Part shown: piece by piece, positions 1,584 through 16,102 of the stretch | Position numbering within the stretch: position 1 is the first letter of the stretch | Layout: the number at the start of each line of letters is the position of its first letter | IMG/VR virus record: IMGVR_UViG_2778261646_000017 | Location: 1 to 16,102 of that record | Strand: one strand, 5' to 3' | Length of the DNA: 16,102 nt | DNA from: a virus | Lineage: Duplodnaviria; Heunggongvirae; Uroviricota; Caudoviricetes | Translations under genes and position numbers: made by a program | Notes under the pieces: generated by a model | What the model was told of the DNA's origin: nothing | What the model saw: the letters and a program-made list of their open reading frames with translations, nothing else | Databases searched by the model: none

Positions 1584-1610
1584 GAAACAACGTGGAACAA
1601 ATAGACACAA
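1584..1610. promoter_or_regulatory. Partial third copy of the phased GAACAA element (gaAACAAcgtgGAACAAatagacacaag)
   Basis: 17 nt (gaaacaacgtggaacaa) identical to the start of the reverse complement of 14781-14810; lies 123 bp after the phoQ stop. Confidence 0.4.
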
Positions 1611-1900
1611 GAAATATACAGGCGGGTAATCTTTCCAGGGGGAAGCGCACCAATTCATGAGGGGCGTTAATGTCGATATGGGGATCCCCATAACGGGGCT
1701 ACCGGATTTTTTTTCCGGTTAACTGTTAATCAGGCTGGTGGGTTTTACCTGTTCGGTAGGTGTTATGATTATCGTAATACCTTTCCCCCAGTGGGGTAAA
1801 AGCTCCAACCGTAACGATGTTCGTTGTGGTTGCCTTGATGGTCTGCGTGGTCATTATGACCATTCCCAAAAACAACATATTCGTTGTTTTTCTGTGCCCC

Positions 1901-2330: not shown

Positions 2331-2599
2331 CGCTCCGGCTTCTTCCAGTGGTACGTTATTTTTTCTTTCTCCCGATGCAGTTCAACGCGGCGATTGTAGG
2401 CCAGCATTTCAAGAACGCGGATCCGTATGTTGCGCATATCAACATCATTAAGCTGGATACCATCACGGCGCATCACCTCAGCAACAACACGCGCATAATT
2501 TTCGGCTGTCACGCTGTCCGGCTGCGTGGTCTGTTCGTCAGCCTGCTGGTTGATTCCAGAGACGCGGCGGATTAATCGCAGTATTTCGGCTTCTGTCAT
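2318..2599 (-). CDS. Hypothetical protein, 93 aa (orphan gene after TerL; candidate accessory gene)
   Basis: ORF MTEAEILRLIRRVSGINQQADEQ...; GAGG Shine-Dalgarno 9 nt upstream of ATG at 2599; enteric-like codon usage; starts 14 bp after the TerL stop. No family recognised. Confidence 0.55.
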   Translation of the reverse strand: MTEAEILRLIRRVSGINQQADEQTTQPDSVTAENYARVVAEVMRRDGIQLNDVDMRNIRIRVLEMLAYNRRVELHREKEKITYHWKKPERLRR

Positions 2600-2612
2600 G
2601 CTGCTGACCTCA

Positions 2613-4274
2613 TTACACCCCGCTAAATTCTTCCAGTTTCTGGCGGTGGCTGTCGCTTATATCAAAAGCAAAATCCTCATGCTCTGCCTGAAATGTACCA
2701 AACGCCATCAGTGCCGCTACGCTCGGGTCTATCTTGTTCGGTGATTTTTTCTTGTTCGGCTTGATATTGGCGTTCGCGTCACTCTGCATCACGACGTTAC
2801 TCATCGACCAGGACAACACCGGATCGCCACGATGCACAATCACCCTGCGGTTAACAAAAACTTCGAACGATTTCGCCGCCGGACTGAATCTGAGGTAGGT
2901 TTGCGGGAACGGCTCCACCTCAAAGCCTGCCCCCTGTAATTGCGTTCTCAGGTGCGTGGCGTTCCACGTATCGAAGCCCACCCGCCTGATATTAAATTTC
3001 TCGGCGTCCTGCATGATGTCATCTCTGATCCGGTCGTAATCAATGCAGTCGCCAGGCGTTGTGCGTATCCAGCCCGCTTTAGCCCACTGGCGATAGACAG
3101 CGCGATTTTTATTGGCTGGGTTCTGTAGCTGGAACTCCGGCAGATAATGACGGGAAACCAGCATGATATTTTTACCGACCGGAAAGGCATAGCATACGCT
3201 GGAAATATCGCTGGTTGATGATAAGTCCAGCCCCGCGTAACACTCCTGACCGTGTAAATCTTCCTCCGTGAACGTTCCGGTACACTCAGCCCATGCACCA
3301 TTACCCATCCACGGGGTAGTCCCCTGACACCAGATATTAAATCGCTTTGTCATCATCTCCACCCACTGCGACGGAATACCCCGCGCTTTCTGGATGGTTG
3401 AGGCCAGTTTTTCACGATCCACGGAAACATCGATGTTAGGGTTAGCCTTTATCCACATCGCCGGATCATCAACCTCGTTTTCGTCGTCCAGTTCGTAAAT
3501 CAGTACAAAAATTGAATCGTTGACCTCTTCGCCGTCCAGGATCTGGCAGCAATAATCATAGTGCTGCTTACAGGCTGAAACGACGTTACTGCCCGATGTG
3601 GTAATGGCAAATAACAGCCCTTCGGGACGTGCGCCCATCCCCATATCAAGTGCGGAATAAACCCCGTTGTCTGGGTGCAGGTGATATTCATCCACAATGG
3701 CAAGACTCGGGTTTGTCCCCTCAATGGTTGCCGCTTTTGCTGCCAGTGGCTTTAACAGGCTGTTGGTTTTCGGGTGTATCACCTTATGCGCCTGAATATT
3801 CACCCGCCTGCGTAACGGTCGGGATAAAAGGCACATCTGACGCGCATCATCAAAGACGATCCGCGCCTGGTCACGGCTCACCGCTGCGGTGTAGATATCC
3901 TGCTGACCGTTCTCCATAATCAGAAACCAGTTAGCCAGAATCGCGGCGGTCGTGGATTTCGCATTTTTGCGCGGCACTTCGATAAAGGCGCTCGTGTATT
4001 TGCGCCGTCCGGTGGCCTTAACCTTAAAGCCGAGGATGCACGCAAAGGCGAACTGCTGCCACGGCTCCAGCTCAATGGGTCTGCCACGCATCGGTCCTTT
4101 TACGTGCGGGCACACCCTGGAAAAGGCAATAAACCGCTCCACAACCTCACGATCGAACGTGTAAAGGGGGCTTTTAAGGTCCGAAAAGTACCGTTTAACA
4201 GCCTGTTTTAACCGTTTACAGGCCGGAATTTTGCCCGTTTTTACGTCTTCTGCGTACTTATTCCAGGCGGTCAA
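2613..4274 (-). CDS. terL: Terminase large subunit (Terminase_1-type ATPase/nuclease), 553 aa
   Basis: N-terminus YAEDVKTGKIPACKRLKQAVKRYFSDL typical of TerL; Walker A VPRKNAKST; Walker B-like LAIVDEYH; apparent TTG start inside the TerS 3' end with AGAGGA SD (17-nt overlap with TerS). Confidence 0.93.
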   Translation of the reverse strand: MTAWNKYAEDVKTGKIPACKRLKQAVKRYFSDLKSPLYTFDREVVERFIAFSRVCPHVKGPMRGRPIELEPWQQFAFACILGFKVKATGRRKYTSAFIEVPRKNAKSTTAAILANWFLIMENGQQDIYTAAVSRDQARIVFDDARQMCLLSRPLRRRVNIQAHKVIHPKTNSLLKPLAAKAATIEGTNPSLAIVDEYHLHPDNGVYSALDMGMGARPEGLLFAITTSGSNVVSACKQHYDYCCQILDGEEVNDSIFVLIYELDDENEVDDPAMWIKANPNIDVSVDREKLASTIQKARGIPSQWVEMMTKRFNIWCQGTTPWMGNGAWAECTGTFTEEDLHGQECYAGLDLSSTSDISSVCYAFPVGKNIMLVSRHYLPEFQLQNPANKNRAVYRQWAKAGWIRTTPGDCIDYDRIRDDIMQDAEKFNIRRVGFDTWNATHLRTQLQGAGFEVEPFPQTYLRFSPAAKSFEVFVNRRVIVHRGDPVLSWSMSNVVMQSDANANIKPNKKKSPNKIDPSVAALMAFGTFQAEHEDFAFDISDSHRQKLEEFSGV

Positions 4275-4614
4275 GCTCGTCCTCTTCTTCTGTTTCCGGT
4301 GGATTTTTACGGCGGCTTATCGGGTCAAAACCGAGCAAGGAGGCCATTTTTATCATCACTCTTTCAGCGTCGGATTTTGCGCTTAATGCGGGGTTTCTGC
4401 TCTCGCCGCCCTGACTGTTAACAATGCTGAACCCGCGCGCCGCAAGGTCTGCAACGGCTTTCCGGTAAATGGAGTAGTTGACGCAATACAGTTCCAGATT
4501 GCTCCAGTCGGCGGGGGTCAGGTCTCCCCGTTCCGCAAGCTGCCGCGATTTTTCCCGCCACTGCTTCACGGCGATATCATCCAGGTAGGCGGGGGCTTTC
4601 GGTGGTCTTGCCAT
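4258..4614 (-). CDS. terS: Terminase small subunit, P27-family-like, 118 aa
   Basis: MARPPKAPAYLDDIAVKQWREKSRQLAERGDLTPADWSNLELYCVNYSIY...NPALSAKSDAERVMIKMASLLGFDP with acidic C-terminus; directly upstream of and overlapping TerL. Confidence 0.8.
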   Translation of the reverse strand: MARPPKAPAYLDDIAVKQWREKSRQLAERGDLTPADWSNLELYCVNYSIYRKAVADLAARGFSIVNSQGGESRNPALSAKSDAERVMIKMASLLGFDPISRRKNPPETEEEDELDRLE

Positions 4615-4665
4615 GCTTATTTTTCGTCAGATTATTTTTCAAAAAATTCCCGTGCATAAAAATTT

Positions 4666-4724
4666 GGGGAGGCGTTCGGTGCCCGGCGGGGTCGGGTTTG
4701 TCCTGAAAACGCCCCCCACCCCGT
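4666..4724. other. Putative cos (cohesive-end) site: GC-rich segment with partial dyad symmetry in the 288-bp HNH-TerS intergenic gap
   Basis: ggggaggcgttcggtgcccggcggggtcgggtttgtcctgaaaacgccccccacccc; it is the only long non-coding gap in an otherwise overlap-coupled operon; HK97-like cos phages place cos between the HNH gene and terS. Confidence 0.4.
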
Positions 4725-4902
4725 CATACAGCCTCATCAGCGATTGCGGAAACATTCCATAACCTCGCGGTCACGGTCGGTTAATCGCTTCGCTGTGATG
4801 CGTTCTGCGCGTCCTGACGCTTTATCTTTATGCCCTGTTTCCTGTGTCTTCCATGCGTCACGCTGCCTTATAAGTCCACGGATAAGGCGGTTTTGTTCCC
4901 GC

Positions 4903-5343
4903 TCATTCATCAGCGTCATACATCCAGTTATTGCGGTTAGCGGCCCGTTCTTCCTCTTCATGAAATCCACCTGCGGCACGCTTGCTTTTTGTTGCCGGAT
5001 CAAGCCATTTCGTTTTCTGGTTATGACACGCCTGGCACAATGGTTGATGGTTCCATTCGGGCCAGAAGAGAACATCATCACCGCCATTAATCGGGATAAT
5101 GTGATCCACCACCACGGCGGGCGTATATATCCCCTTCTCAAGGCATCGCACGCATAACGGGTTTTTACTCAGATACATGGCGCGGTATTTGTCCCACTGT
5201 CTGGAGTACCCACGCGCGCGGCGGTGTCCTCGTCTGGCATCCTCTGCACGCCATGCCGCCCGCCTGTGCTCCTCACACTTGCCGGACTTCACGCGCCTGT
5301 TACAGCCTGGTTCTGTGCATCGTCTTAATGGTTGCCACGGCAT
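4903..5343 (-). CDS. HNH endonuclease (packaging-associated), 146 aa
   Basis: Cys pairs CTEPGC...C and CVRC...C, HNH core VVDHIIPINGGDD...NHQPLCQACHNQKT; GGGGGTG SD; sits immediately upstream of the cos-like gap and terS. Confidence 0.88.
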   Translation of the reverse strand: MPWQPLRRCTEPGCNRRVKSGKCEEHRRAAWRAEDARRGHRRARGYSRQWDKYRAMYLSKNPLCVRCLEKGIYTPAVVVDHIIPINGGDDVLFWPEWNHQPLCQACHNQKTKWLDPATKSKRAAGGFHEEEERAANRNNWMYDADE

Positions 5344-5639
5344 CAGTACACCCCCACATCACGGTAAGCCGTCCAGAGCGCGCCAATCGTCATGGGTACG
5401 CGCGTTTTTGCGTTATCCGCTACCAGCTGGCGATTCTCGTACAGGTGAGCGATAAACATCATGCAGCCAATCTTTATGGCTGGCGTGAACTCCAGCCCGT
5501 CATCAAAGCGCCTGCCTATATGTATCTGGCACGCCTCAAGCGATGCGGCAATGTATCCGCTGATTAACTGGTCTTCCTCGTCGCCATCGATGCGGCAATG
5601 GAGTTTCACTTCTTCCAGGGTGATAAGTTCTTCTGTCAT
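5343..5639 (-). CDS. gp6-like head-tail connector protein, 98 aa
   Basis: N-terminal LITLEEVKLHCRIDGDEEDQLISGYIAASLEACQ matches the gp6-like connector signature; GAGGG SD; ATGA start-stop overlap with the upstream adaptor gene. Confidence 0.75.
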   Translation of the reverse strand: MTEELITLEEVKLHCRIDGDEEDQLISGYIAASLEACQIHIGRRFDDGLEFTPAIKIGCMMFIAHLYENRQLVADNAKTRVPMTIGALWTAYRDVGVY

Positions 5640-5974
5640 TTTTCCGCGCCCTCACGACAAAGAATTTCAAGGCGTGTCCTGGCGGCATCCGGCAGCGGCT
5701 GCCCGATGATATTCAGTACACGCCCCGCCAGCGGCCCCGTATTGACCTTTATCCGGCTGGTGGCGTTGATGTCCTTCCTGTAGCGTATCCATATCCTTAC
5801 CGTTCCAGTCGCCAGTTCTGCACCCGATGAAATGGCCTCCTTGCTGCTGATCATGTTCACGCTTGCCCAGAGTGTGTGACCGTCCACCCACGTTTCGAGT
5901 ATTTCGCCGGTTATATCCCTGGTCTGTTTCAGGGTCTGAATCGTTACCCTGTCACGCAGTCGCCCTATGTTCAT
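5636..5974 (-). CDS. Head-tail adaptor / head-closure (joining) protein, about 112 aa
   Basis: GRLRDRVTIQ...TGEILETW...LWASV...RIWIRYR pattern of the phage head-tail joining family; start chosen at ATG 5974, which forms an ATGA overlap with the portal stop (the ORF track's longer start at 6016 has no SD). Confidence 0.75.
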   Translation of the reverse strand: MNIGRLRDRVTIQTLKQTRDITGEILETWVDGHTLWASVNMISSKEAISSGAELATGTVRIWIRYRKDINATSRIKVNTGPLAGRVLNIIGQPLPDAARTRLEILCREGAEK

Positions 5975-7182
5975 TCCGGTTTTTCTCCCTCGCTGATTTT
6001 TACTTCCTGTTTCCATGCCTGGCTGAACTCATCACCACCATCACGCGGGGACAGCCCTTCACGTTCGCGGGCTTCGTTCGGGCACATAACGCCGGATTTG
6101 ATGCCGCGTTCATAGGTGGCAAAGCGTTCGCCAGGTGTGGCCCGTAACAGGTCCGCGCTGTCAAACTCCACCTGATACCGGATACCAGGTACAGGTGAGG
6201 CCACCAGCAGGGCGTTTTTTATCTGCTGCTCAAAGTTCGCCAGCCACGGGCGCATCGTCATGGTGAGAAATGCGCGGCTTGCCTCGCTGAAATTGCTGTA
6301 GGTGCTGTTGCTGTATTCCTGCAAAAAAATCGGCGAGACGTTGAACATTCGGGCGATGTCTTCAATGGTGAAGCGACGGGAGGCCAGCCATTCAGCATCC
6401 TGATTACTCATGCCCAGCTGCTGATAGCTCATACCCCCTTCAAGGATGGGCGTTTTTCCGGCGTTTCTGGCCCCTTTGTAGCGTTCCAGTGCGGCTAATG
6501 CCTGTTTGCCCTTCACGCCGTCCAGCCATTCGCCTGACGTGATAACCCCTGCCGCCATCATGCCATCACGCATCACGCTCGCGCCGTGGCGTTGTTGGGC
6601 CAGCCCAAGCCCCAGCGATTCGCGGCAGATGGTTACAGGTGAGCGCCCCATAAAACCGTCATCCGTGGAGTAACGAAGGTGGAGAACCTCCCACGGTAAA
6701 TAGTTGCGGGTGTTTCCGGTGTAGGCGTCAGTGATGCAGTAGCGCCAGTTATGCTCACCTGTCTGCTCCACGTTCACCGACTGCGGCGGGTAAGGATGTA
6801 AAGCCACCGGAAAACCATCACGCCCCCACCGAATCACCGCATAAGCATTACCGTTTAACAGGCAGTGGCGGATCATCATTCGCTTAAACTGGTAGGGGGT
6901 TTGCCACGCGTTCGGGCGCTCGTTGAGGATGTGATCGACCGGATGAGAATCAAGCCACTCGCGGGCCTCCTTCCCCTTCTCATTGCGTACCAGGTACAGG
7001 TAACACGGCATGGTAGCCACCGCCTCAGAGATGACCGTCACGGCGTTCATGACGGCGGGCAGTGATTCCGCTGTCCCCGATGATACGTACTCACCCGCCC
7101 CCGTGTTCGATGTGCCGGCCAGCGCCATAAACTCATCAAGCGTCATGCTGCGCTGCTCTTTTTTTCTTCTGAAAGGCCACAT
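5971..7182 (-). CDS. Portal protein (HK97-family-like), 403 aa
   Basis: 403-aa ORF between protease and adaptor with portal-like features (…FNVSPIFLQEYSNSTYSNFSEASRAFLTMTMRPW…); GGGGGTG SD; start 1 nt after the protease stop. Confidence 0.9.
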   Translation of the reverse strand: MWPFRRKKEQRSMTLDEFMALAGTSNTGAGEYVSSGTAESLPAVMNAVTVISEAVATMPCYLYLVRNEKGKEAREWLDSHPVDHILNERPNAWQTPYQFKRMMIRHCLLNGNAYAVIRWGRDGFPVALHPYPPQSVNVEQTGEHNWRYCITDAYTGNTRNYLPWEVLHLRYSTDDGFMGRSPVTICRESLGLGLAQQRHGASVMRDGMMAAGVITSGEWLDGVKGKQALAALERYKGARNAGKTPILEGGMSYQQLGMSNQDAEWLASRRFTIEDIARMFNVSPIFLQEYSNSTYSNFSEASRAFLTMTMRPWLANFEQQIKNALLVASPVPGIRYQVEFDSADLLRATPGERFATYERGIKSGVMCPNEAREREGLSPRDGGDEFSQAWKQEVKISEGEKPE

Positions 7183-7183
7183 A

Positions 7184-7741
7184 TCACACCCCCGCTAAAT
7201 CCGCCCACCAGCGGCGATTATCCGCACGCGGCATTTTTTCGGGGTGCTGCTCGTACAGGGAGCGGCGGGCCAGCTCCACGCCAGAATCAGGGTAAGCCGG
7301 TACGGATGTAACGGTAATTTCGTACAGTTCCGCCACCAGCACGGTGCGCACGCATGGATCTGTTGTGGTATCCCATACATCCTTACGGGAGCGAAAGCCA
7401 AAGCTCATGCCGGATATATCACCTCGTTTAACCAGTTCGATAACGTCCCGCCCTGTACTGGTATCCGGTGGGGTCAGTTCAAAGCGTAACCCTGTGTCGT
7501 CCTCTTCCAGTTTCAGCGTGCCGGAACGGGTGCGCCCCAGTAACATGCTGTGGTCATGCTCATACAGGCCGCGAACGTCATTACCCGCTGCAAGCCATTC
7601 AGTAAACGCTCCCCGCTGGAATTTTTCGTAAAACTCCCCCCATAGCAGCTCTGAAAGGTTATCCCAGCGAACAACGTAGCCTGTAAGCGTGTTGCTGGCG
7701 CTGGTGGTGATTTCCGATGACCGGATTTCCATACTCTTCAT
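7184..7741 (-). CDS. Prohead maturation protease (HK97-family-like), about 185 aa
   Basis: MKSMEIRSSEITT...GYVVRWDNLSE...DHS..LLGRTRSGTL...GDISGMSFGF motifs; start placed at ATG 7741 (GGTGA SD) because the longer start at 7756 lies directly on the tail of the upstream terminator. Confidence 0.85.
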   Translation of the reverse strand: MKSMEIRSSEITTSASNTLTGYVVRWDNLSELLWGEFYEKFQRGAFTEWLAAGNDVRGLYEHDHSMLLGRTRSGTLKLEEDDTGLRFELTPPDTSTGRDVIELVKRGDISGMSFGFRSRKDVWDTTTDPCVRTVLVAELYEITVTSVPAYPDSGVELARRSLYEQHPEKMPRADNRRWWADLAGV

Positions 7742-7756
7742 AATTTTTTCACCCAT

Positions 7757-7786
7757 AAAACACTAAAGGGGCTTTTAAGCCCCTTC
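7757..7786 (-). terminator. Rho-independent terminator between the capsid and protease genes
   Basis: On the - strand: AAGGGGCT-TAAA-AGCCCCTT stem-loop followed by TTAGTGTTTT, 10 nt after the capsid stop. Confidence 0.6.
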
Positions 7787-7795
7787 TGTATGCTG

Positions 7796-8953
7796 TTAAT
7801 CGTCGTCCTGTGGCAGTTCCAGAATCTTGATCGCGTTCGAATCCACCACGCCACCGCCTAAATATTTCTGCGTGAAAATTTTGATGAAGCCCGGCTCTGT
7901 GAGGTTGTCCGGTCTGGTGCGAACACCTGTTTCGTGATCAACAATGTAGTAACCGCGTTTGAAGTCACCCAGGGCAATAACGTTATCAGGCATAAACTCC
8001 AGATATTCGACCGGAAGGCCCAGCAACGTATCAGGATCACCCGCCTGTAAACGGTCGCGCCAGATGTAATCACCGTTCGCGTTCTTCACCTTCTGAAGTT
8101 TTGCGGCCGTCGTGGAGTTAACCACCCAGACCGCGTTTTTGCGATATTTTTTATGTAATGCAAATTTCAGGTCGATCAGCGGGTCCGCAGATGTCCACGC
8201 CAGAGATTCGGAAGGTTTAATTACCTGTAACGTACCAAAATCACGCTCTTTGTCGTTCTTCTCTGCACGGGGTACGGATAAAAAGCCTTTTGCTTTTTTG
8301 TCACCGTCGCCCACAACCAGATCGCTTTCTTCGGTTTCCGTGAAGGTGTCGCCAATCTCACCCGTCAGCCATGAAAGGATGTCCACATCGGAAAAATCCA
8401 CGATTTCCTGTGTGGTGCGCGGGTACGCATAGACCGGATACAGCTTAATGCTCACCTCGTTAATCTGCGGGGTGCTGGTCTGTTCGCGTGCCTTACCCTC
8501 TTCACCGTGGTTAACGGTCGCACCGCCAGCGGAAACAAGCTGCTTAAACTCGTTGCTGCTGATTTTCTTCACGGTACAGATGCGGCGCATGGTGGATTCA
8601 TCCGCCAGCATTCGCATGATTTCGGTGTTCAGCTCGGGGATAACGGTATAACCACCATCAGCGGGAACGCCTGTACTTAATGCGCGGGTTTCACCTGTCA
8701 GGATGTAGTTTCGTAGTTCTGCGGGGTCAGTGGTCTGACTGCTTTTACCTGGCTTGCTGCGCTCTTCGTCTGCAATGGCTTCAAGGCGGGAAATGTCTTT
8801 ATCGAGGGATTCAGCTTTAGCGCGTAATTCGTCAAATTTTGCGCCCTCAGCATCGTTAAGACTGCGGTTTTCTTTTTCCGCGTTCTCCAGCATGTCGCGC
8901 ATCTGATTTTTAATGGCGGTTTTCTGCTGGCGTAATTCGATTATTCTCGGCAT
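7796..8953 (-). CDS. Major capsid protein, HK97-fold with N-terminal coiled-coil scaffold (delta) domain, 385 aa
   Basis: N-terminal 60 aa heptad-rich (LRQQKTAIKNQMRDMLENAEKENRSLNDAEGAKFDELRAKAESLDKDISRLEA); C-terminal body with capsid-like features (…GYYIVDHETGV…); followed by a terminator. Confidence 0.93.
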   Translation of the reverse strand: MPRIIELRQQKTAIKNQMRDMLENAEKENRSLNDAEGAKFDELRAKAESLDKDISRLEAIADEERSKPGKSSQTTDPAELRNYILTGETRALSTGVPADGGYTVIPELNTEIMRMLADESTMRRICTVKKISSNEFKQLVSAGGATVNHGEEGKAREQTSTPQINEVSIKLYPVYAYPRTTQEIVDFSDVDILSWLTGEIGDTFTETEESDLVVGDGDKKAKGFLSVPRAEKNDKERDFGTLQVIKPSESLAWTSADPLIDLKFALHKKYRKNAVWVVNSTTAAKLQKVKNANGDYIWRDRLQAGDPDTLLGLPVEYLEFMPDNVIALGDFKRGYYIVDHETGVRTRPDNLTEPGFIKIFTQKYLGGGVVDSNAIKILELPQDDD

Positions 8954-8960
8954 AAAAAAA

Positions 8961-8990
8961 GTCCTGGGGTTAAGTAAGGAACTCCAGGAC
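8961..8990 (-). promoter_or_regulatory. Stem-loop plus U7 tract immediately 5' of the capsid ATG; the stem contains the AGGA Shine-Dalgarno
   Basis: - strand reads GTCCTGG-(16-nt loop)-CCAGGAC-TTTTTTT-ATG; the only SD-like sequence (AGGA, 8 nt before ATG) is in the 3' arm of the 7-bp stem. Confidence 0.5.
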
Positions 8991-9167
8991 GCGGCAAAAA
9001 CTCAACCGTTTTTCATAAGGAAATCAGCAATCGCACCGATCGTTTTCCCGCCTGGTAATGAATATTGGCGAGAACATTAACAGGCGGAAAAGTGGCCCCA
9101 GCGTCCTGGCACCACGGGCGAGAATAATCATGATTCAGTTCGGGTAAAATATGCCGATCCGGTCAGC

Positions 9168-9193
9168 GAACAACGTGGAACAACCACGAACAA
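9168..9193. promoter_or_regulatory. Phased hexamer element GAACAA-cgtg-GAACAA-ccac-GAACAA, about 215 bp upstream of the capsid gene
   Basis: Three perfect GAACAA hexamers at 10-bp spacing; 9169-9193 is identical to the reverse complement of 14781-14805. Confidence 0.5.
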
Positions 9194-9210
9194 ATAATTT
9201 ACAAAACATG

Positions 9211-9235
9211 ACAAAAAGCCGGATTGCTCCGGCTG
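9211..9235 (-). terminator. Rho-independent terminator after the PerC-like gene (end of the early operon)
   Basis: - strand: AGCCGGA-GCAA-TCCGGCT followed by TTTTTGT, 6 nt after the stop. Confidence 0.6.
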
Positions 9236-9240
9236 TGTGA

Positions 9241-9513
9241 TTATCTGTCCTGGTAATTTCGCCATATTTCATCACCAGCACCATCCATACCCATTTCGGC
9301 ATAAGTGCGATCGACCGCCTTTTTCAGGTCTCCGTAATTATCCGGCGGCTCCGGTGGCCTCTGTGCCTTCCTGGAACATTCCAGCCGTCGCATCGTGATG
9401 TGATGCCGTTCCTTGTCTGTCTCCACCAGTTGCATGACTTCACCCCATCGCGCCGACGCTCTCCGGTAAAAGCCTTTCGCCTCCAGTTCTTCCGCTATGC
9501 GGTCATGTACCAT
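9241..9513 (-). CDS. PerC-like small transcriptional activator (putative), 90 aa
   Basis: MVHDRIAEELEAKGFYRRASARWGEVM... resembles my recollection of the PerC-family N-terminal signature (LE..G.WRRAA.RW); strong GAGGGGGG SD; family assignment not verified. Confidence 0.55.
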   Translation of the reverse strand: MVHDRIAEELEAKGFYRRASARWGEVMQLVETDKERHHITMRRLECSRKAQRPPEPPDNYGDLKKAVDRTYAEMGMDGAGDEIWRNYQDR

Positions 9514-9522
9514 CGCCCCCCC

Positions 9523-9933
9523 TCAGAACGGAATATCATCACCGTAAGGGTCATCGCCTCCCGCTGGTGGCTGATTACCCTGTGTGCCTGTGGTCTTGCG
9601 CCGGCTCCCACCAGGTCGCGCCGTTCTGGCACTGATTACGCTGTCTGCAATAACCTGCCAGCCCTGCCGCGTTTCGCCGTTCTGGCCTGTCCACTGGCTT
9701 ACCTGCATGTTACCCGCCACGCTCACCAGCTCGCCTTTGTGGTGTTTTGCCAGTGCGTCGGCCTGTCTGCCAAACGCCAGGACGGATAACCACATCGTCG
9801 CCTGTCCGTCATCTGCCTGATTGCACGGCAGGGGGACCGCCATGCTTGCCATAGCCATTTGTGTGCCCTTGCTGGTGGTCTTTAACTGCGGGTCAGCCAC
9901 CAGCCGCCCGTAAGCGGCTATCTGTGCTGTCAT
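9523..9933 (-). CDS. ssb: Single-stranded DNA-binding protein, divergent, with canonical acidic DDIPF C-terminal tail, 136 aa
   Basis: OB-fold-like core (YGRLVADPQLK...WLSVLAFGRQAD...KGELVSVAGNMQVSQW), Gly/Pro-rich linker and C-terminal DDPYGDDIPF; ATGA overlap with the upstream gene. Confidence 0.8.
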   Translation of the reverse strand: MTAQIAAYGRLVADPQLKTTSKGTQMAMASMAVPLPCNQADDGQATMWLSVLAFGRQADALAKHHKGELVSVAGNMQVSQWTGQNGETRQGWQVIADSVISARTARPGGSRRKTTGTQGNQPPAGGDDPYGDDIPF

Positions 9934-10187
9934 GATTCCACCTCTCCGGTTTTAACGTTGATGGTTGTTACCTGTTCCGCTTCGGCAATCTCCCGTTCCG
10001 TCAGCGTGGCAAAGTTTGCCGCCGCCGTGGTCATGAATGCGCTTATCAGGTCGGGATGTGCTTTCGCGTATCCTTCCCCCGTGTTGCGGTCGATGATTTT
10101 TATCGCCACTCTCAGCCAGTGCTCTGTAAGGTCAATGGCGCGGTTATGCTGCTTCTTCTGATTATTAAGTTTTCCTGATGTGCGCAT
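9930..10187 (-). CDS. Hypothetical protein, 85 aa
   Basis: ORF MRTSGKLNNQKKQHNRAIDLTEHW...; GAGGGGG SD; translationally coupled to ssb. No family recognised. Confidence 0.55.
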   Translation of the reverse strand: MRTSGKLNNQKKQHNRAIDLTEHWLRVAIKIIDRNTGEGYAKAHPDLISAFMTTAAANFATLTEREIAEAEQVTTINVKTGEVES

Positions 10188-10229
10188 TTTTATTTTTACC
10201 CCCTCGTTTAAAAAGTTTTGAGTTGTGCC

Positions 10230-10465
10230 TCCCCTTGTCTACCTTATCTACCTTACTGGCTCTCATGCCAGTAATGGCGCGGCTTTCAGCGGGGTAGAGT
10301 GCTTTTATCCACTATCTACCCCGTATCTACCTCCCTGTCTGATTCAGGTAAAATCAGGTAGAGAGGGTAGATAGTAGGTAGACAGTGAAAAAAGGCTGTC
10401 TACCTAAGTTAATATACTGAATTAAATGTATTTTTCTTTACTCAGGTAGACAGGGTAGACAGCCA
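10230..10465. repeat. Iteron-type replication origin: at least 11 copies of GGTAGA / TCTACC in both orientations flanking an AT-rich core
   Basis: tgtctacc, tatctacc (x3), ggtagag, aggtagagagggtagatagtaggtagacag, gtctacct, then AT-rich taagttaatatactgaattaaatgtatttttctttac, then aggtagacagggtagacag; immediately 3' of the primase gene. Confidence 0.7.
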
Positions 10466-10475
10466 TTGCAAAAAA

Positions 10476-12224
10476 TTATAAAAACGCGTCGCAATCGTCT
10501 GTTGTTATTGCGTTAGTCTGCGTTACTCCCTTAACTTTCCGCGTAATATATTCATGTCCGTAAACTTTCGCGGCTGGCTTCATAGCCTTGCCAAAGTCAT
10601 TTACGTTTAGCGGTTTGCTCCTGCCTGCGTATGCCATAAACGCCAGATAGACGCGGTAAAGGCTGTTTCTGGTCGTGTACTTCACTGAATCGCCACCGCC
10701 ACCCATCATCAGGCCGCGCGCTTCCTCCAGAAAATTCAGGAACTGGCAAAACTCAATAACCGGATCCGTCTGTTGCTTTATTGCCAGTGCTTCATCACCG
10801 TCACGCTGTTCCAGTAGTAAAGCCCGTGCCTTCTCAGGGTCGGTAAAGTTCGCCAGCAAGCGGCGGATAATGACAGGGATTTCAGCCGCGATCTTTTCCG
10901 GTAGCTCCCTGTCTTTTTCTGCCTCGCTTACGATATTGTCGAAGCGGAAAATAACCCGACGACGTGACACGCCTCCGGCCCGTTCGGTGAATATCATCGG
11001 GTTGTTATTGGTCGCCAGCACCACCGCCCTGATTACCGTAGTGAAACGCTTTTCATATTTCGGGTTGATTTCCACGGGGTCGCCGCCCGTGATTTTCTTG
11101 ATGCCCGTGCCTTCGCCTGTATATTTCGGCTGGTCTGCCAGGACGATAAGACGACTCCCGACAACCTGCGCACGCCCACCAGCATCATCAAGCGATGTCA
11201 TTTCCGCGCTTACCGTGTTTTGTTTCCCCGCTAAAAGGCTGGCGATGTGGGTGAATGTACTTTTGCCGCTCCCGCCGTCTCCGGTGGCCTCAATAAACAT
11301 CTGCCAGTCGTACCGGTTCGCCATAATCATGTACAGCGCGGCACATATACGCATCATCTTGCGCTGGTCTTTTCCGGCTGCGTGATCAAGCCATTTATGA
11401 AAGTTTGGCGCGTTATCGCGGATGTTCTCCCCAGGTGCTGGTGGCGTGTACTCAATGCCGTTGTGCGTGGTGATCCAGTTCTCCGGCGTGTGCGGGGAAA
11501 ATTCCCCCGTTTTCAGGTCAAGCGCACCATTGGCGAACGGCAACAAATCGCCGGACGGCTCGCCCATTGGTTCGGCAATAACTTTTAACGCTTCCACGGC
11601 GTTATTGATTACGCGCTTGCTGAAAGTGGCCCTGTGCTCTGAATAGATCGCCACCATTTCGCGGCTAAGTTCCATTGTGCTGACCGGACACCATACCCCG
11701 CCGCGCCATACGTGAACGATTTCACTTTCCGGATGCACACAAACGCCATCAAATCGACCAGCAAGCATCTGTGCGCGCTCACTGTCTGCCATTTGTGCCA
11801 GTTGCGTATTTTTCTGCTCCGGCATGGTAAGCCCTGCGGCAATATTTTCACGCTCAGCATTCAGATAGCGCCGCCAGTTTTCACACTTCTGGACGTGCAT
11901 TCCTTCGGGGTAAAAATTTGCGTCCTGAATATCTGCCGCCGCCAGCTTCTGACCAATCTTTTTGGTCTCCACCAAATCCAGTTCTCCGGCCTGGTACAGC
12001 CTTACGCGCTTTTTCCCATCCGGAACAATTTTCAGCGCATCAAGTTCGGCAAGCTGATTTGGCCCAAGCCACACAGGCGGCACATTATCGCCGGATGCGG
12101 GGCCGTCCTGCTCCTGCCACTGTTTTGCATGTGACCACGCATCACTACCCGCGAAAATAATTACCTCTGTGTCTTTGTGTTTTATTCCGCGTGGCTGTTT
12201 TTTTACGTTCGGTGCCAGTTTCAT
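10476..12224 (-). CDS. Replication protein: primase / SF3-type helicase (P4 alpha-like, PICI Pri-Rep-like), 582 aa
   Basis: Walker A GDGGSGKST, Walker B-like RLIVLAD, N-terminal primase-like region; ATGA-coupled to the upstream small gene; iterons directly downstream. Confidence 0.88.
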   Translation of the reverse strand: MKLAPNVKKQPRGIKHKDTEVIIFAGSDAWSHAKQWQEQDGPASGDNVPPVWLGPNQLAELDALKIVPDGKKRVRLYQAGELDLVETKKIGQKLAAADIQDANFYPEGMHVQKCENWRRYLNAERENIAAGLTMPEQKNTQLAQMADSERAQMLAGRFDGVCVHPESEIVHVWRGGVWCPVSTMELSREMVAIYSEHRATFSKRVINNAVEALKVIAEPMGEPSGDLLPFANGALDLKTGEFSPHTPENWITTHNGIEYTPPAPGENIRDNAPNFHKWLDHAAGKDQRKMMRICAALYMIMANRYDWQMFIEATGDGGSGKSTFTHIASLLAGKQNTVSAEMTSLDDAGGRAQVVGSRLIVLADQPKYTGEGTGIKKITGGDPVEINPKYEKRFTTVIRAVVLATNNNPMIFTERAGGVSRRRVIFRFDNIVSEAEKDRELPEKIAAEIPVIIRRLLANFTDPEKARALLLEQRDGDEALAIKQQTDPVIEFCQFLNFLEEARGLMMGGGGDSVKYTTRNSLYRVYLAFMAYAGRSKPLNVNDFGKAMKPAAKVYGHEYITRKVKGVTQTNAITTDDCDAFL

Positions 12225-12520
12225 TTTTTACCCCTGAATACGTTAAGCATCTTTTTTATTTCCTGAATATTGGCGCGTGCTTTCTCCCTGCTGGTTGGTT
12301 TACTGCGGGGCGCTGCCTGTACCAGAGAAAAATCACGCCGAAACTGATAAACAGGCATCACGCAATCATATTCGTAGCCTTCACGACGGTAGGTGATGCG
12401 CCGTTCTGCCACGCCTTTAATCGTTACCATGCCGCCATATTTATCGCGGTAAATATCGCCGTTCATAAATTCAGGACGAGCGGGGCCGCTGGCAGTAACG
12501 CCAGAATTTTTATTTTTCAT
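12221..12520 (-). CDS. Hypothetical protein, 99 aa
   Basis: ORF MKNKNSGVTASGPARPEFMNGDIYRDKYGGMVTIKGVAERRITYRREGYEYDCVMPVYQF...; basic C-terminus; no family assigned with confidence. Confidence 0.55.
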   Translation of the reverse strand: MKNKNSGVTASGPARPEFMNGDIYRDKYGGMVTIKGVAERRITYRREGYEYDCVMPVYQFRRDFSLVQAAPRSKPTSREKARANIQEIKKMLNVFRGKK

Positions 12521-12525
12521 GTTTT

Positions 12526-12753
12526 TTATTCTCCGGTGTGCTGCGCTTTATTATTCTCGTGAATTGCCATCACTGTATTTAATTCATTAATAACAGGCGT
12601 TAATAGCGTACGCACGGCAGAAAACATCATTGAATCAGATTCATCGCCACTTTCCGGCACATCAATTAACTTAAGTAGTAATGCGTCCATTTCCTTTGCG
12701 CGGATTAATGCGTTTTCAGAATGAACAAGAACATCAAAGGGTATTTTATGCAT
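12526..12753 (-). CDS. Hypothetical protein, 75 aa (start at the internal ATG with AGGGGGGAG SD)
   Basis: MHKIPFDVLVHSENALIRAKEMDALLLKLIDVPESGDESD...; the longer start offered by the ORF track (12855) has no SD and overlaps the upstream gene. Confidence 0.5.
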   Translation of the reverse strand: MHKIPFDVLVHSENALIRAKEMDALLLKLIDVPESGDESDSMMFSAVRTLLTPVINELNTVMAIHENNKAQHTGE

Positions 12754-12916
12754 GACTCCCCCCCTGGCGAATACGGGCGACAAAAATAAGATGTGCGTGC
12801 GGCAGCTGTGCACGTGCTTCGCGCTCAGTGGCAGCGGTAACGGTGAATATTGCAATACTGTCTGTCAGGCACTGCATAAAGCGCCAGACAAAATAAGGGC
12901 GTGCGAATACAGCCAT
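12746..12916 (-). CDS. Small protein, 56 aa, paralog of the gene at 13203-13406 (possibly the Icd-like cell-division-inhibitor family; unverified)
   Basis: MAVFARPYFVWRFMQCLTDSIAIFTVTAATEREARAQLPHAHLIFVARIRQGGSHA aligns with the C-terminal 50 aa of the upstream paralog (WRF...EARxQ.P......F.ARIRQG.SHA). The reading frame stays open upstream to 13210, so the N-terminus is uncertain. Confidence 0.5.
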   Translation of the reverse strand: MAVFARPYFVWRFMQCLTDSIAIFTVTAATEREARAQLPHAHLIFVARIRQGGSHA

Positions 12917-13202
12917 GTGAAAGGCTCCCAGATGAATTTTAAGGAGTCTCGCTACTACGCTGCTAAACATGGTGGCGAGACGTAACAGGGTTAGCAGACT
13001 GGTCATCTGGAAACCAGCGAGCACAAAGGCTCCCCCGTTACGCCCCGCCATAATGCGGGTATGGGTAGGTTTACGGACACAAAAAAACCGCTTATCGGAT
13101 GTGGGCGGCTGTCCGCCAGATGTATTCAGGCTGCTAAACCCGGTCGCCATGTGGGCGACGGGGGAAGCATACAGCCCCGTGATAATTTTTTGCAAGCGGT
13201 TT

Positions 13203-13406
13203 TTACGCATGATGTGACCCCTGACGAATACGGGCGGCGAATACCATCACGCAGCCAGCCGGGGATTGCTGGCGTGCCTCCTGTTCGCTGGTGGCCTCAA
13301 TGGTAATCACGCGCGGTTGTGCCGTGCTCAGGGCGATAAAACGCCAGATGTATTTATTCAGGTTGTGCGAGTCCCGCCCTTGCGGGTGTGTGGTATGATT
13401 TCTCAT
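13203..13406 (-). CDS. Small protein, 67 aa, paralog of the gene at 12746-12916 (possibly Icd-like; unverified)
   Basis: MRNHTTHPQGRDSHNLNKYIWRFIALSTAQPRVITIEATSEQEARQQSPAGCVMVFAARIRQGSHHA; GAGG SD 6 nt upstream of ATG at 13406; it is the C-terminal part of a 352-aa track ORF whose remainder I reject. Confidence 0.55.
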   Translation of the reverse strand: MRNHTTHPQGRDSHNLNKYIWRFIALSTAQPRVITIEATSEQEARQQSPAGCVMVFAARIRQGSHHA

Positions 13407-13501
13407 AGCTACCTCGATACTTTCGCTATCGTTGGTGGTTAGAGGCTGCGAAAGGACGGCAATCCTTTTCAGCCTCGTTTGCATTGAGTGATAGTTACTC
13501 A

Positions 13502-13582
13502 ACTGGATTCCAGTATAATCATCAAGTGGAATCCACTTCAAGCATTTTGTTTTGGTCTTTTTCGTGTATACTGGATTCCAGT
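13502..13582. promoter_or_regulatory. Three palindromic operators with core TGGAWTCCA, plus -10-like hexamers, in the divergent control region
   Basis: ACTGGA-T-TCCAGT at 13502-13514, AAGTGGA-A-TCCACTT at 13524-13538, ACTGGA-T-TCCAGT at 13570-13582; TATAAT at 13514-13519. Confidence 0.6.
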
Positions 13583-13602
13583 AATCACAAAGGAAACCGG
13601 AA

Positions 13603-13782
13603 ATGGAAAGAGACCATATCAATAACAAATCACAAAAATTACAGGCTCGCGCCCCGCATGAAGTTGTTGAGGCAATGGAGCAAGTCAAAGAAACAGGCGA
13701 GAGCACTGCGCAATTTATCGTTACAGCCATGCGCGGCGAGATCAAACGCCGCCAGCGTCGCAAAGCCAAAGAATCAGAATAA
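13603..13782 (+). CDS. Small ribbon-helix-helix-like DNA-binding protein (putative regulator), 59 aa; not in the ORF track because it is under 60 aa
   Basis: MERDHINNKSQKLQARAPHEVVEAMEQVKETGESTAQFIVTAMRGEIKRRQRRKAKESE; AGGAAA SD 8 nt upstream; predicted strand-helix-helix pattern; operators directly upstream. Confidence 0.5.
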   Translation: MERDHINNKSQKLQARAPHEVVEAMEQVKETGESTAQFIVTAMRGEIKRRQRRKAKESE

Positions 13783-13839
13783 TCACTATCAGCGCCGTGG
13801 CGTGAGGTACTCCGGCGCATTGCTTTACAGGTCAGTACT

Positions 13840-14049
13840 ATGAGCAAAAAACACCGATCAGCAGATGAGATTTTTGCAGAACAACGAAGATTGCTTTTGC
13901 AAAGTATCATTTCACGCCAGCAAGAGAAGGCGCGAGCTAAACAAATGCCACCAAATACAGAACCAGCGCCTACAAGATTTGCGCTTGATGACTTTCTCGA
14001 TAAACACCCCAGGGTAATGAAAGCAAACAAAAACCGCCCACCAGGCTGA
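13840..14049 (+). CDS. Hypothetical protein, 69 aa
   Basis: MSKKHRSADEIFAEQRRLLLQSIISRQQEKARAKQ...; weak AGGT SD; followed by a + strand terminator. No family recognised. Confidence 0.4.
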   Translation: MSKKHRSADEIFAEQRRLLLQSIISRQQEKARAKQMPPNTEPAPTRFALDDFLDKHPRVMKANKNRPPG

Positions 14050-14140
14050 TCACATTGCCCACCAGCCTGATAGCGGCTATCATCCCCGTGCTTATGTTTG
14101 AGATCACACACACAAACGGCGCAGCGGGTTATCTGTTCAG

Positions 14141-14173
14141 AAAGGCGGCTCCATTTCAGGGCCGCTTTTTTTA
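14141..14173 (+). terminator. Rho-independent terminator for the two small + strand genes
   Basis: AAAGGCGGC-(11-nt loop)-GCCGC followed by TTTTTTT on the + strand. Confidence 0.55.
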
Positions 14174-14318
14174 TTCCTGAAAAACCCCAATTTTGTTGTT
14201 TTTCAGTTTCACCAGGGCGAACGAATCCCCGCCCACGTTCTGGCGTATATTCAATCTTCATGGTTATAGCTCTGTGTTCAGATGATTGATGTGTGGCGGC
14301 TGCGTGCCGCCAGCGTGA

Positions 14319-14507
14319 TTAATGAACTGCCTTGCAGCTATCCTTCCAGGCCAGAACCTCGGATAAAGACCAGCCAACGGAACGACCGCCAAGTTTACGA
14401 CGTGATGGGAATTGTCCGGCCTTTTCCAGGCGGTAGCGACACGTACGGCTAAGGCCGGTTAGTTTTTCGCATTCTTTTTCACGTATAAACCGATCAGTGC
14501 TTAACAC
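14319..14507 (-). CDS. alpA: AlpA-family transcriptional regulator / excisionase-like HTH protein (62 aa from GTG; track ORF extends to a TTG at 14588)
   Basis: DRFIREKECEKLTGLSRTCRYRLEKAGQFPSRRKLGGRSVGWSLSEVLAWK matches the AlpA HTH signature (TGLSRST.YR....G.FP...KLG.R.V.W); GTG at 14507 has a strong AAAGGGGGG SD 5 nt upstream. Confidence 0.8.
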   Translation of the reverse strand: MLSTDRFIREKECEKLTGLSRTCRYRLEKAGQFPSRRKLGGRSVGWSLSEVLAWKDSCKAVH

Positions 14508-14780
14508 TATTGCCCCCCTTTCGTTTCTTAAAGAGTCATCAGGTGTCTTATTGTGTCGTATTGTTCCCGCTAGAGTGATGAATGGCAAATATTGAGGATG
14601 TATGATTTACAGAAAATGAAACAGTAAGAATAAAATCTTTTAAATTCATGTTAATACAAAGGCATAAAATATTGTTTCATGCCTTTTTTCTCACGCGTTA
14701 AAGCGTTATTCGCTAATGTATAAAAAAACAGTCACACAAATAAAATCAGTCACTTATAAACCTGTGTGCTTTTTCGCCTC

Positions 14781-14826
14781 TTGTTCGTGGTTGTTCCACG
14801 TTGTTTCACATTGTTCTCCGTTGTAT
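14781..14826. promoter_or_regulatory. Phased hexamer element: five TTGTTY hexamers at exact 10-bp spacing, between int and alpA
   Basis: + strand TTGTTC-gtgg-TTGTTC-cacg-TTGTTT-caca-TTGTTC-tccg-TTGTAT; the first 25 nt are the exact reverse complement of 9169-9193. Confidence 0.55.
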
Positions 14827-14872
14827 CTGTGTGCTTATCCAGTATGCGCATACTGAAAAAACACGAAAAAAA

Positions 14873-16102
14873 TTATTTTCTTCTGGCTGCTGGTAGTGCG
14901 GTTACGTTTTCATGTGTTCCCGCCAGTATCCCTAACCGCTCCATCCACATATCCAGCGCATTGCGTTTAGCATCCAGATAACGGGAATGATTATAAACTC
15001 GCTGCATTCCTGGCATCTGGTGGCCTGTAAGCTGCTCCACGACGTGAGGATCCACGCCTAAATCGCTCAGCATCGTTGTAAAGGTGCGCCGGATGTCATG
15101 TAGTGACCAGTGAGGGTGATTTAGCCTCCTGTGCGCTAATCTGCCGTACTGCGACACGCTTGTTTCCTGTTTCACTTCCCCCAGCAATAAGCCCGTGTGC
15201 CTGTTCTGCTCCACCAGCTGCGTGACGAACGGCAGTATTGCTTCCGGTATGGGCCGGAATATTGCCACCTTCGTTTTGCTGTGTTCTTTCGGCACGGTCC
15301 AGAGCATTTCGGTAAAATCCCACTCGCTGATCTCCGATAACCTCAGTTCTACCGTCCGGCATCCGAACACAATCAGGAGGCGGATTAACGCGATGTAGTA
15401 GGGGGAGAATATTTTTTTGTCCAGTGCCTGCAATAATTCGCCCAGTTCTTTGGTGCTTAAGACACGCTCGCTTATATCCAGTTTTTTCCCAACGTCCGCC
15501 ACACTCATATCATCAAGAACGTTGCTGATTGCATAGCGCCGCCTCCGGCAGAACTTAAGCGCCTGTTTGCACGTCTGTAGCAAGAATCCGGCAGTAACAG
15601 GCGTTCGCTTTGCCACCTGGTCAAAACAGGCCAGCCAGTGCCGTAGCTCGCATTTATCCAGCGGCATAGCACCAATGTGCTGTATTACGTGATTATTAAG
15701 GCGCTTTTTCAGGGCGGCATAATCCACGCGGTTTTCCTTTGCGTACGACTCAAGCCAGTAGGTGAGCGCATCGCCAACCGTTACCGGCTTTAACGCTTCC
15801 TGTACGGTGTAATTAAGCTCATGACGTGGATTTTTCCCCTCTGCCAGCCATGCGCGACACTGGGCGGCTTTTTCCCTGGCTGATTTCAGGCTCAGATCAG
15901 GATAATTTCCCAGCTTAATGCGTTCCGGTGGTGCCCCCCTTCCCGTTCCGGCCCTGTAAGTGAAATACCAGGTTAAAAGGCCACTGGTTGAATGCCTGAC
16001 GCTCAGGTTTCCACCGTCATTAAGAAAGGCTGTTTTTTGGGCGGGTGTGCCGTTGATTTTCCTCAGCTGTGTATCGCTCAGTTTGTTAAGTGCTCTGCTC
16101 AT
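14873..16102 (-). CDS. int: Tyrosine recombinase / integrase, P4-type (409 aa; start codon at the window edge, could extend further)
   Basis: N-terminal arm-binding-like domain (LSDTQLRKI...GLLTWYFTYRAG), catalytic region with HDIRRTF...LGHQ-like...RVYNHSRY (R-H-R-Y residues). Confidence 0.92.
   Translation of the reverse strand: MSRALNKLSDTQLRKINGTPAQKTAFLNDGGNLSVRHSTSGLLTWYFTYRAGTGRGAPPERIKLGNYPDLSLKSAREKAAQCRAWLAEGKNPRHELNYTVQEALKPVTVGDALTYWLESYAKENRVDYAALKKRLNNHVIQHIGAMPLDKCELRHWLACFDQVAKRTPVTAGFLLQTCKQALKFCRRRRYAISNVLDDMSVADVGKKLDISERVLSTKELGELLQALDKKIFSPYYIALIRLLIVFGCRTVELRLSEISEWDFTEMLWTVPKEHSKTKVAIFRPIPEAILPFVTQLVEQNRHTGLLLGEVKQETSVSQYGRLAHRRLNHPHWSLHDIRRTFTTMLSDLGVDPHVVEQLTGHQMPGMQRVYNHSRYLDAKRNALDMWMERLGILAGTHENVTALPAARRK

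Follow-up and report, generated by a model that had tools for sequence, protein, structure and literature searches.

The major capsid gene of the satellite element studied here is preceded by a stable hairpin, hairpin C, which buries the only Shine-Dalgarno (SD)-like sequence close to the start codon and which, in Escherichia coli and Shigella, runs directly into a tract of seven or eight U residues. The element lies in a stretch of 16,102 nucleotides (positions 1 to 16,102 of the IMG/VR record IMGVR_UViG_2778261646_000017; the whole stretch is hereafter referred to as the window), which is 100% identical over its 16.1 kb to E. coli O7:K1 CE10 and carries a capsid-forming phage-inducible chromosomal island (cfPICI) of the EcCIEDL933 type. 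We interpret hairpin C as a negative leader element, with a translational role in all lineages and a probable attenuator function in E. coli, and assign this reading about an even chance (a probability of roughly 0.5). The original prediction, made from the letters of the window, had already pointed to the right kind of element; it overstated the terminator aspect as a general property and missed that the hairpin is part of a leader of about 200 nt containing a candidate anti-terminator/anti-sequestor partner, which changes the view of how the block might be relieved.

The features that define the hairpin and its immediate surroundings are as follows.

7796..8953, minus strand: gene for the HK97-type major capsid protein (Pfam PF05065, E = 7e-62; RefSeq annotation)
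8954..8960, minus strand: U7 tract between the stem and the ATG (sequence reading); U8 in EDL933 and about one-third of the relatives, absent from clade 2 of the relatives (see below)
8961..8990, minus strand: hairpin C, with a 7-bp base stem GUCCUGG/CCAGGAC, an A/C mismatch, three inner pairs and an 8-nt loop (RNAfold)
8962..8965, minus strand: AGGA, the SD-like element inside the 3′ arm (sequence reading; pairing probability of 1.0 in the full leader)

The minus strand reads 5′-GC GTCCTGG A GTT CCTTACTT AAC C CCAGGAC TTTTTTT ATG, with CCUUACUU as the RNA loop segment, and the ATG (8953-8951) is the RefSeq start of the 385-aa capsid protein. The two 7-bp arms occupy positions 8990-8984 (5′) and 8967-8961 (3′), so that the stem, the U7 tract and the capsid start codon are where they had been predicted to be. 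The 16 nt noted between the arms stand as a distance, but not as a loop: RNAfold adds the inner pairs G8982-C8969, U8981-A8970 and U8980-A8971 across the A8983/C8968 mismatch, leaving only 8 nt unpaired. Hairpin C has a predicted free energy of -14.1 kcal/mol, accounts for 87% of the ensemble and is considerably more stable than expected from its composition (z = -4.85; 0 of 200 dinucleotide shuffles were equally stable). It is recovered both in a 71-nt context (8940-9010), the fold that had been suggested as a check, and in the fold of the whole 240-nt leader. AGGA, located 8 nt from the capsid ATG, is indeed the only SD-like element within 25 nt of it, as had been claimed, and opening the ribosome-binding region of the gene (-20 to +13 around the ATG) would cost 16.3 kcal/mol.

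The same structure thus combines two anatomies, that of an intrinsic terminator, with a GC-rich stem (five G-C pairs in the 7-bp base) directly abutting U7, and that of an SD sequestor, with AGGA paired in a stable local structure. The combination of a perfect 7-bp stem, a loop of at most 20 nt and at least six T occurs once on the two strands of the window, compared with a chance expectation of 0.03 per window in first-order Markov simulations. A simple terminator scan of the window did not list the site, because its rule demands an uninterrupted stem and a loop of 3-8 nt. FindTerm, applied to E. coli strain Sakai, called a rho-independent terminator (score -14.9) located 35 bp past the stop codon of XECs153, an open reading frame (ORF) of the leader considered below (PMC5597208), and this terminator is hairpin C, with an identical sequence. 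The U7 versus U8 difference is polymorphic among otherwise near-identical elements and shifts the SD-ATG spacing by 1 nt.

Within E. coli, 352 of the 361 matching genomes are at least 95% identical to the window over the 240 nt that precede the capsid gene, and these matches are therefore uninformative. Searching genome, viral and metagenome collections by capsid and by pattern yielded approximately 140 distinct sites, which divide by sequence into two clades; the leader precedes the capsid gene in more than 100 distinct cfPICI sequences. Clade 1 consists of E. coli and Shigella elements, including EDL933 and a 77%-identical variant, L015. The larger clade 2 encompasses elements of Citrobacter, Erwinia and Rosenbergiella along with many IMG/VR contigs of about 15 kb; its members recovered via the capsid protein are 66-74% identical to the window in this protein. 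Hairpin C followed by U7 or U8 is kept in all clade-1 variants, including L015, in which the upper stem and the loop differ and U8 is retained. In a common clade-1 variant, a CC-to-UU change puts an A-U pair in place of the A/C mismatch and G-U in place of a G-C pair, yielding 11 contiguous pairs and -16.6 kcal/mol; as far as predicted pairing shows, the clade-1 variants are structure-neutral or stabilising.

In clade 2, a hairpin of a different sequence, UGGUUUC-a-CGU ... ACG-GAAACCA, with ACGGAAACCA as its 3′ arm, occupies the same position. Its 3′ arm contains purine-rich SD-like bases and is followed by ACUCC (or similar) and the AUG, without a U-tract. Each of the 63 distinct 52-nt variants of the sequence before the start codon forms a hairpin in which the purine-rich SD-like bases take part, mostly with energies between -9 and -18 kcal/mol; the two exceptions appear degenerate (-7.5 kcal/mol, and -4.9 kcal/mol in an element with an ATA start). 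Of 50 distinct clade-2 regions, 48 have the 5′ arm paired in their local minimum-energy fold. The dual likeness to a terminator and to a translation-blocking hairpin put forward in the original prediction therefore survives in part: the SD-burying hairpin is present in all cfPICI relatives examined and FindTerm supports the terminator in Sakai, but the U-tract is confined to the E. coli/Shigella clade and, being missing from the larger clade, termination cannot be the family-wide function.

Upstream of hairpin C, the leader contains two adjacent stem-loops (SL-A and SL-B), the first of which carries a segment complementary to the 5′ arm of the hairpin.

9092..9115, minus strand: SL-A, with a 5-bp outer stem, an internal loop, a 4-bp inner stem and a GACG tetraloop at 9105-9102 (covariation)
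9043..9091, minus strand: SL-B, a long hairpin directly adjoining SL-A (fold, RNAalifold)
9101..9109, minus strand: CCAGGACGC, candidate anti-terminator/anti-sequestor strand within SL-A (complementarity)
8984..8992, minus strand: GCGUCCUGG, switch segment comprising the 5′ arm of hairpin C and two further nucleotides, and holding the family-invariant CGUC (alignment)

SL-A is paired in 99.8% of the alignment cells, with three inner pairs fully compensatory between the clades, and its GACG loop is invariant in 102 of 102 sequences. SL-B varies greatly in sequence and length but keeps its structure, 8 of its 9 basal pairs showing compensatory changes in clade 2 (RNAalifold). The SL-A pattern precedes a capsid start in 135 of 140 distinct matches, compared with 0 of 92 for a control pattern of equal degeneracy, in which the closing pair of SL-A is Y-R; there is therefore no third independent lineage in which to test covariation. 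On this sequence evidence, the SL-A pattern, taken to stand for the leader as a whole, is particular to cfPICIs. The window leader and a clade-2 leader obtained only chance-level Rfam matches far below the gathering scores, with no match to an antiterminator family at E ≤ 10, and no counterpart of the leader was found in 50,697 phage records. The leader family thus appears to be undescribed, although terminator/antiterminator pairing and SD sequestration are themselves known logic. In L015, L061 and L093 (the E. coli SB0258h1 type), the outer stem of SL-A is degenerate, with three of five pairs, and the predicted minimum-energy fold is the alternative helix between SL-A and the hairpin arm described below; this leader may be naturally 'open' or defective.

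In clade 1, CCAGGACGC (9109-9101) is a perfect 9-nt complement of GCGUCCUGG (8992-8984), and in clade 2 the equivalent AGACGUGA complements UCACGUCU. In a MAFFT alignment, both clades show within the hairpin region an invariant C-CGUC that is complementary to the GACG loop. Neither GACG nor CGUC varies in any of the 102 aligned sequences, so that the four core pairs are constant throughout, and at pairs 13-141, 18-136, 20-134 and 11-143 both partners differ between the clades. The alternative helix pairs in 82% of the cells in register versus 23-45% when the register is slid. According to the predicted folds, this helix would remove the bottom of the terminator stem and free AGGA in clade 1; in clade 2, it would remove the upper stem and two base pairs, with 5 bp remaining. 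Folds forced to include it lie 4-12 kcal/mol above the optimum; for L015, the helix is itself the minimum-energy fold. The 5′ arm of the clade-2 hairpin is invariant and the 3′ arm variable, as expected of one strand with two partners. As judged from complementarity, the alternative pairing has the anatomy of a terminator/antiterminator (or sequestor/anti-sequestor) switch.

A published transcription start bears directly on the need for such a switch. Cappable-seq of EDL933 detected a primary 5′ end at 1,687,918 (+), assigned to the capsid gene EDL933_RS08700 (PMC10469882, supplementary file 6), and, as the table was read, this start was present in 7 of 8 non-inducing conditions (PMC10469882). 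The capsid ATG of NZ_CP008957.1 is at 1,688,124, placing the start 206 nt upstream of the gene.

9158, minus strand: equivalent of the EDL933 start, an A in CCGGAUCGG (mapped via NZ_CP008957.1), which implies a leader of 205 nt in the window

Given a primary transcript that begins 206 nt upstream in uninduced EDL933, a post-initiation block is logically needed in an element whose genes for capsid and terminase are expected to remain silent. Uninduced lysogens that harbour near-identical elements do transcribe the leader, as seen also in Sakai, where it reaches about 30 reads per kilobase per million (RPKM) (PMC5597208).

We propose that the promoter about 205 nt upstream of the capsid gene would fire even in uninduced cells and that the hairpin, by pairing the weak or only SD in every lineage, would block binding of the 30S subunit. 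In E. coli and Shigella, the seven or eight U residues after the hairpin would in addition make it a probable intrinsic terminator (attenuator) that stops the leader transcripts. Relief could come from re-pairing of the hairpin 5′ arm, GCGUCCUGG, with the SL-A apex, CCAGGACGC, which would free the SD and remove the terminator stem; alternatively or in addition, processive antitermination at induction may allow read-through. The tight late control requiring antitermination and/or unfolding of the hairpin that the original prediction put forward is an inference. A further terminator-like hairpin follows the capsid gene.

7757..7786, minus strand: terminator-like hairpin with a U-rich tail, directly 3′ of the capsid stop codon (terminator scan, relatives)

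This hairpin is kept in the relatives inspected (L004-L241), with covarying GC-rich stems, making control by read-through downstream of the capsid gene plausible as well; its probable role is that of an attenuator adjusting the capsid:protease:portal ratio. The annotated start of the protease gene, ATG 7756, follows the terminator tail and lacks an SD; a better match to the GGAG-ATG starts of the relatives is the in-frame ATG at 7741, which has GGGUGA in front of it (7741-7756, minus strand). A second 'hairpin-U-tract-ATG' arrangement at the protease gene was accordingly rejected as probably an annotation matter, the better, SD-bearing start being 15 nt downstream.

Several observations weigh against the interpretation of hairpin C as a negative leader element with a switch. 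Covariation within the hairpin is not significant in either clade: in clade 1, 72 of 500 shuffles reach the observed score, and in clade 2, where 92% of the cells are paired without double changes, 213 of 500 do so; the RNAalifold consensus of clade 2 omits the hairpin altogether. What argues for a functional structure is therefore its thermodynamics, the fact that two unrelated sequences both give an SD-burying hairpin and a few structure-neutral changes, rather than any statistics of compensatory change. Clade 2, which lacks the U-tract, is the larger of the two clades. Support for the alternative helix comes essentially from one phylogenetic split, and in most members this helix is less stable than SL-A plus the hairpin, so that a factor would be needed; no such factor was identified, AlpA being of the PF05930 type and PerC being absent from many relatives. 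Finally, the capsid protein is needed in large amounts, which sits uneasily with an SD trap of -14 kcal/mol unless relief is efficient.

Candidate regulators encoded by the element were also considered. PerC, encoded just upstream, was rejected as a universal activator of the operon because perC is missing from that place in many clade-2 elements. The AlpA of the island was rejected as a Q-like antiterminator, being a 62-aa PF05930 protein as opposed to the 21Q-like, eight-helix AlpA of Pseudomonas aeruginosa. A Pfam search of ten large ORFs and ten small proteins (two of them from related elements) revealed no Q-like or other antiterminator domain.

The region around the mapped start contains additional conserved or repeated motifs.

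9193..9206, minus strand: conserved DNA motif TTTTGTAAATTATT, at -48 to -35 of the mapped start
9168..9193, minus strand: three TTGTTC direct repeats with an exact 10-bp period, spanning -35 to -10 (sequence reading)
9121..9148, minus strand: sigma-70-like pair, TTTAC (9148-9144, +11 to +15), a 16-nt spacer and TATTCT (9126-9121, +33 to +38) (conservation)

The motif TTTTGTAAATTATT is located at a fixed distance of 88-90 nt from SL-A in nearly all relatives, although the intervening sequence is variable, and may be a regulator-binding site. TAAATT within this motif was considered as the -10 element of the capsid promoter and rejected: the mapped start is 31 nt further downstream and none is listed near the predicted place. 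The first TTGTTC repeat lies at -35 of the mapped start, and the repeats are also found in a subset of the relatives, those of type II within clade 2; other clade-2 elements have a terminator-like hairpin, CCCCUGUCUCUGACGGGGGUUUUCUUU, at this position. Across 110 distinct sequences, the TTT of the sigma-70-like pair is conserved in 107-109, and A2 and T6 of TATnTT in all 110. Such a pattern could reflect either an additional promoter, active upon induction and with its start at SL-A, or a pause element that depends on sigma; transcription starting at SL-A, predicted from the conservation, was set aside for uninduced cells since no such start is listed in uninduced EDL933. A scan of viral contigs for the AT-rich motif returned random matches only.

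Two further features of the leader appear to be local to the window or its close relatives.

9024..9131, minus strand: leader ORF of 35 codons running through SL-A and SL-B, equivalent to XECs153 of strain Sakai (PMC5597208 supplements)
9119..9129, minus strand: GAUUAUUCUCG, an 11-nt perfect complement of capsid codons 2-5 (8948-8938) (predicted fold)

Ribosome profiling of Sakai, which catalogued XECs153 as a 'novel small gene', gave it RNA RPKM values of 29/34/10 and ribosome coverage values of 0.42/0.10/0.04, and the predictor used by the authors classified it as 'pseudo' (PMC5597208). The ORF is not conserved in clade 2, in which it has 10 codons or is lacking. With 35 codons in the window, 10 in clade 2, no counterpart in about 15% of the members and low footprints, it was rejected as an attenuation peptide. 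The minimum-energy fold from 9158 to +35 of the coding sequence consists of SL-A, SL-B, a small hairpin, hairpin C and a helix between GAUUAUUCUCG and codons 2-5, the last of which is predicted to enclose the entire leader domain when transcription begins at the upstream start. This helix is significant in the window (z = -3.5) and weak in EDL933 and clade 2; it was therefore discarded as a family feature and is best regarded as local to the variant found in the window.

Three other explanations deserve consideration. The SD-burying hairpin is family-wide and the U-tract lineage-specific, the U7/U8 length polymorphism is tolerated, and an internal mismatch and an 8-nt loop make a non-ideal terminator; all of this would suit an operator that acts on translation only, with the hairpin solely occluding the SD, either for low basal translation or for autoregulation by a protein of the capsid module, and with the U-tract serving as an A/U-rich spacer or an S1-binding enhancer. 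Such an operator is nevertheless unlikely, given that seven or eight U are kept in all clade-1 variants, even the divergent L015, that FindTerm scores the site as a terminator, that the primary transcript begins upstream in uninduced cells and that a GC-rich base stem abutting at least seven U is the defining anatomy of an intrinsic terminator. Less probable again, in our estimate, is an arrangement of the pR′-tR′ type, in which an always-on promoter would yield a terminated leader RNA of about 200 nt (possibly a small RNA), processive antitermination would be needed for capsid expression and occlusion of the SD would be incidental. The antitermination agent would be a Q-like factor loaded at the promoter motif and the -10-like element, or else SL-A and SL-B acting in a put-like manner, and it would also pass the post-capsid terminator. 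The uninduced start 206 nt upstream fits this arrangement, as do the conserved motif at -48 to -35, the -35/-10-like pair with invariant A2 and T6 at +11 to +38, the covarying post-capsid hairpin of the relatives inspected, the resemblance of the two adjacent stem-loops near the 5′ end to the putL layout (PMC9378689) and the analogy with PR′/StxS of Stx phages (PMC7547250). However, by Pfam the element encodes no Q-like or other antiterminator, the -10-like element at +33 lies beyond the known Q or AlpA pause elements (-1 to about +25), the leader is unlike any of the phage records searched, the clade-2 hairpin has no U-tract, and constitutive put-like antitermination would defeat a silencing terminator.

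Finally, hairpin C might not be a regulatory switch at all but a neutral or stabilising structure of the 5′ untranslated region, or an inverted repeat bound by a protein at the DNA level, with the complementarity to SL-A arising as a by-product of shared sequence. The lack of significant covariation within clades, the mostly invariant arms, which are compatible with a constraint on sequence rather than on structure, and the presence of the CCAGGAC 7-mer twice in direct orientation are all consistent with this possibility. We regard it as very unlikely, because two unrelated arm sequences form an SD-burying hairpin at one and the same place, the G-U pairs and mismatch-to-pair changes point to a constraint at the RNA level, the neighbouring SL-A and SL-B display clear RNA-type covariation, and four positions co-change with SL-A between the clades.

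Returning to the negative leader element, it is conceivable, albeit with the odds against it, that the leader of about 160-205 nt, consisting of SL-A, SL-B and the switch hairpin, represents a new class of cis-regulatory RNA specific to capsid-forming satellites, flipped from a closed state, with the SD sequestered and, in E. coli, transcription terminated, to an open state by a factor derived from the helper, the satellite or the host, or by put-like action on RNA polymerase, so that capsids would be licensed only in the presence of a helper. cfPICIs make their own capsids and terminase and borrow only tails, and neither silencing of the packaging operon in the lysogen nor its switching on by the helper is addressed in the cfPICI literature that we found. 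The combination of an uninduced promoter with a conserved, SD-hiding leader offers a concrete and cheaply testable silencing mechanism, with defined bases for mutation in the stem, the U-tract and the GACG/CGUC pair. If a factor-sensing switch is involved, the leader would constitute a new family of regulatory RNAs, of which more than 100 members are already known in Enterobacterales, and provide a handle for engineering satellite-based delivery particles.

The island is inserted between roxA and phoQ, and every island gene is on the minus strand. Apart from the features listed above, the following were recognized.

16102-14873, minus strand: integrase
14507-14319, minus strand: AlpA, 62 aa, PF05930
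12224-10476, minus strand: primase
9513-9241, minus strand: SSB and PerC
9212..9234, minus strand: canonical intrinsic terminator 3′ of perC, AGCCGGAGCAAUCCGGCUUUUU, closing the upstream operon (terminator scan and sequence reading)

The packaging operon begins with the capsid gene, which is preceded by a 287-nt non-coding stretch; downstream of this gene are the genes for the prohead protease, the portal, head completion, HNH, TerS and TerL. Between perC and the leader, EDL933 carries a 350-bp segment (L002 3160-3520) that is missing from CE10 (~9216-9240) and encodes a 74-aa protein without a Pfam match. Homologues of this protein (70-95 aa, H[GD]F...EQ.D.LI..L) are encoded just upstream of the leader in many clade-2 elements. 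In the early region (12746-14261, minus strand), RefSeq lists several fragments resembling the Icd cell-division inhibitor, one of them a pseudogene; a 352-aa ORF at 13203-14261 has no Pfam match and is unannotated in RefSeq.

Terminator/antiterminator logic of the trp leader type is familiar from classical attenuators and the expression platforms of riboswitches. The leader described here resembles these in its three mutually exclusive pairings (SL-A, the SL-A apex with the hairpin 5′ arm, and the hairpin with its U-tract) and, more specifically, the dual transcription/translation riboswitches in having the SD within the 3′ arm of the terminator; unlike them, it has no assignable ligand, tRNA or conserved leader peptide and no match in Rfam. 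Hairpins that sequester the SD are known from the early transcripts of T4 genes e and soc, from Mu mom, which is controlled by Com, and from the fold-back inhibition of IS10, and in these systems relief depends on a promoter inside the structure or on a named protein. By comparison, the local hairpin, together with the codons 2-5 helix in the case of the window, would silence transcripts from the upstream start in a similar manner, but transcription from the candidate internal promoter TTTAC-16-TATTCT would do away with the long-range helix only and leave the hairpin in place.

The late control of lambdoid phages, with pR′, tR′, the 6S/StxS RNA and Q, is paralleled by the promoter active without induction, as mapped in EDL933, by a leader of about 200 nt ending in a hairpin and U-tract before the late structural genes, by the conserved DNA motif at the promoter and by a -10-like element in the transcribed region. 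The differences are that the element carries no Q gene, that its -10-like element lies at +33 to +38 and not within the first ~25 nt, that the terminator abuts the start codon and contains the SD, and that the relatives from other genera lack the U-tract. Although SL-B varies widely in length and sequence, and HK022 put acts constitutively and would not silence the operon, SL-A and SL-B (9115-9043, 73 nt), which begin at +44 of the mapped start and have terminators downstream, resemble put in layout only, and the leader shares with putL a -10-like element nearby (PMC9378689).

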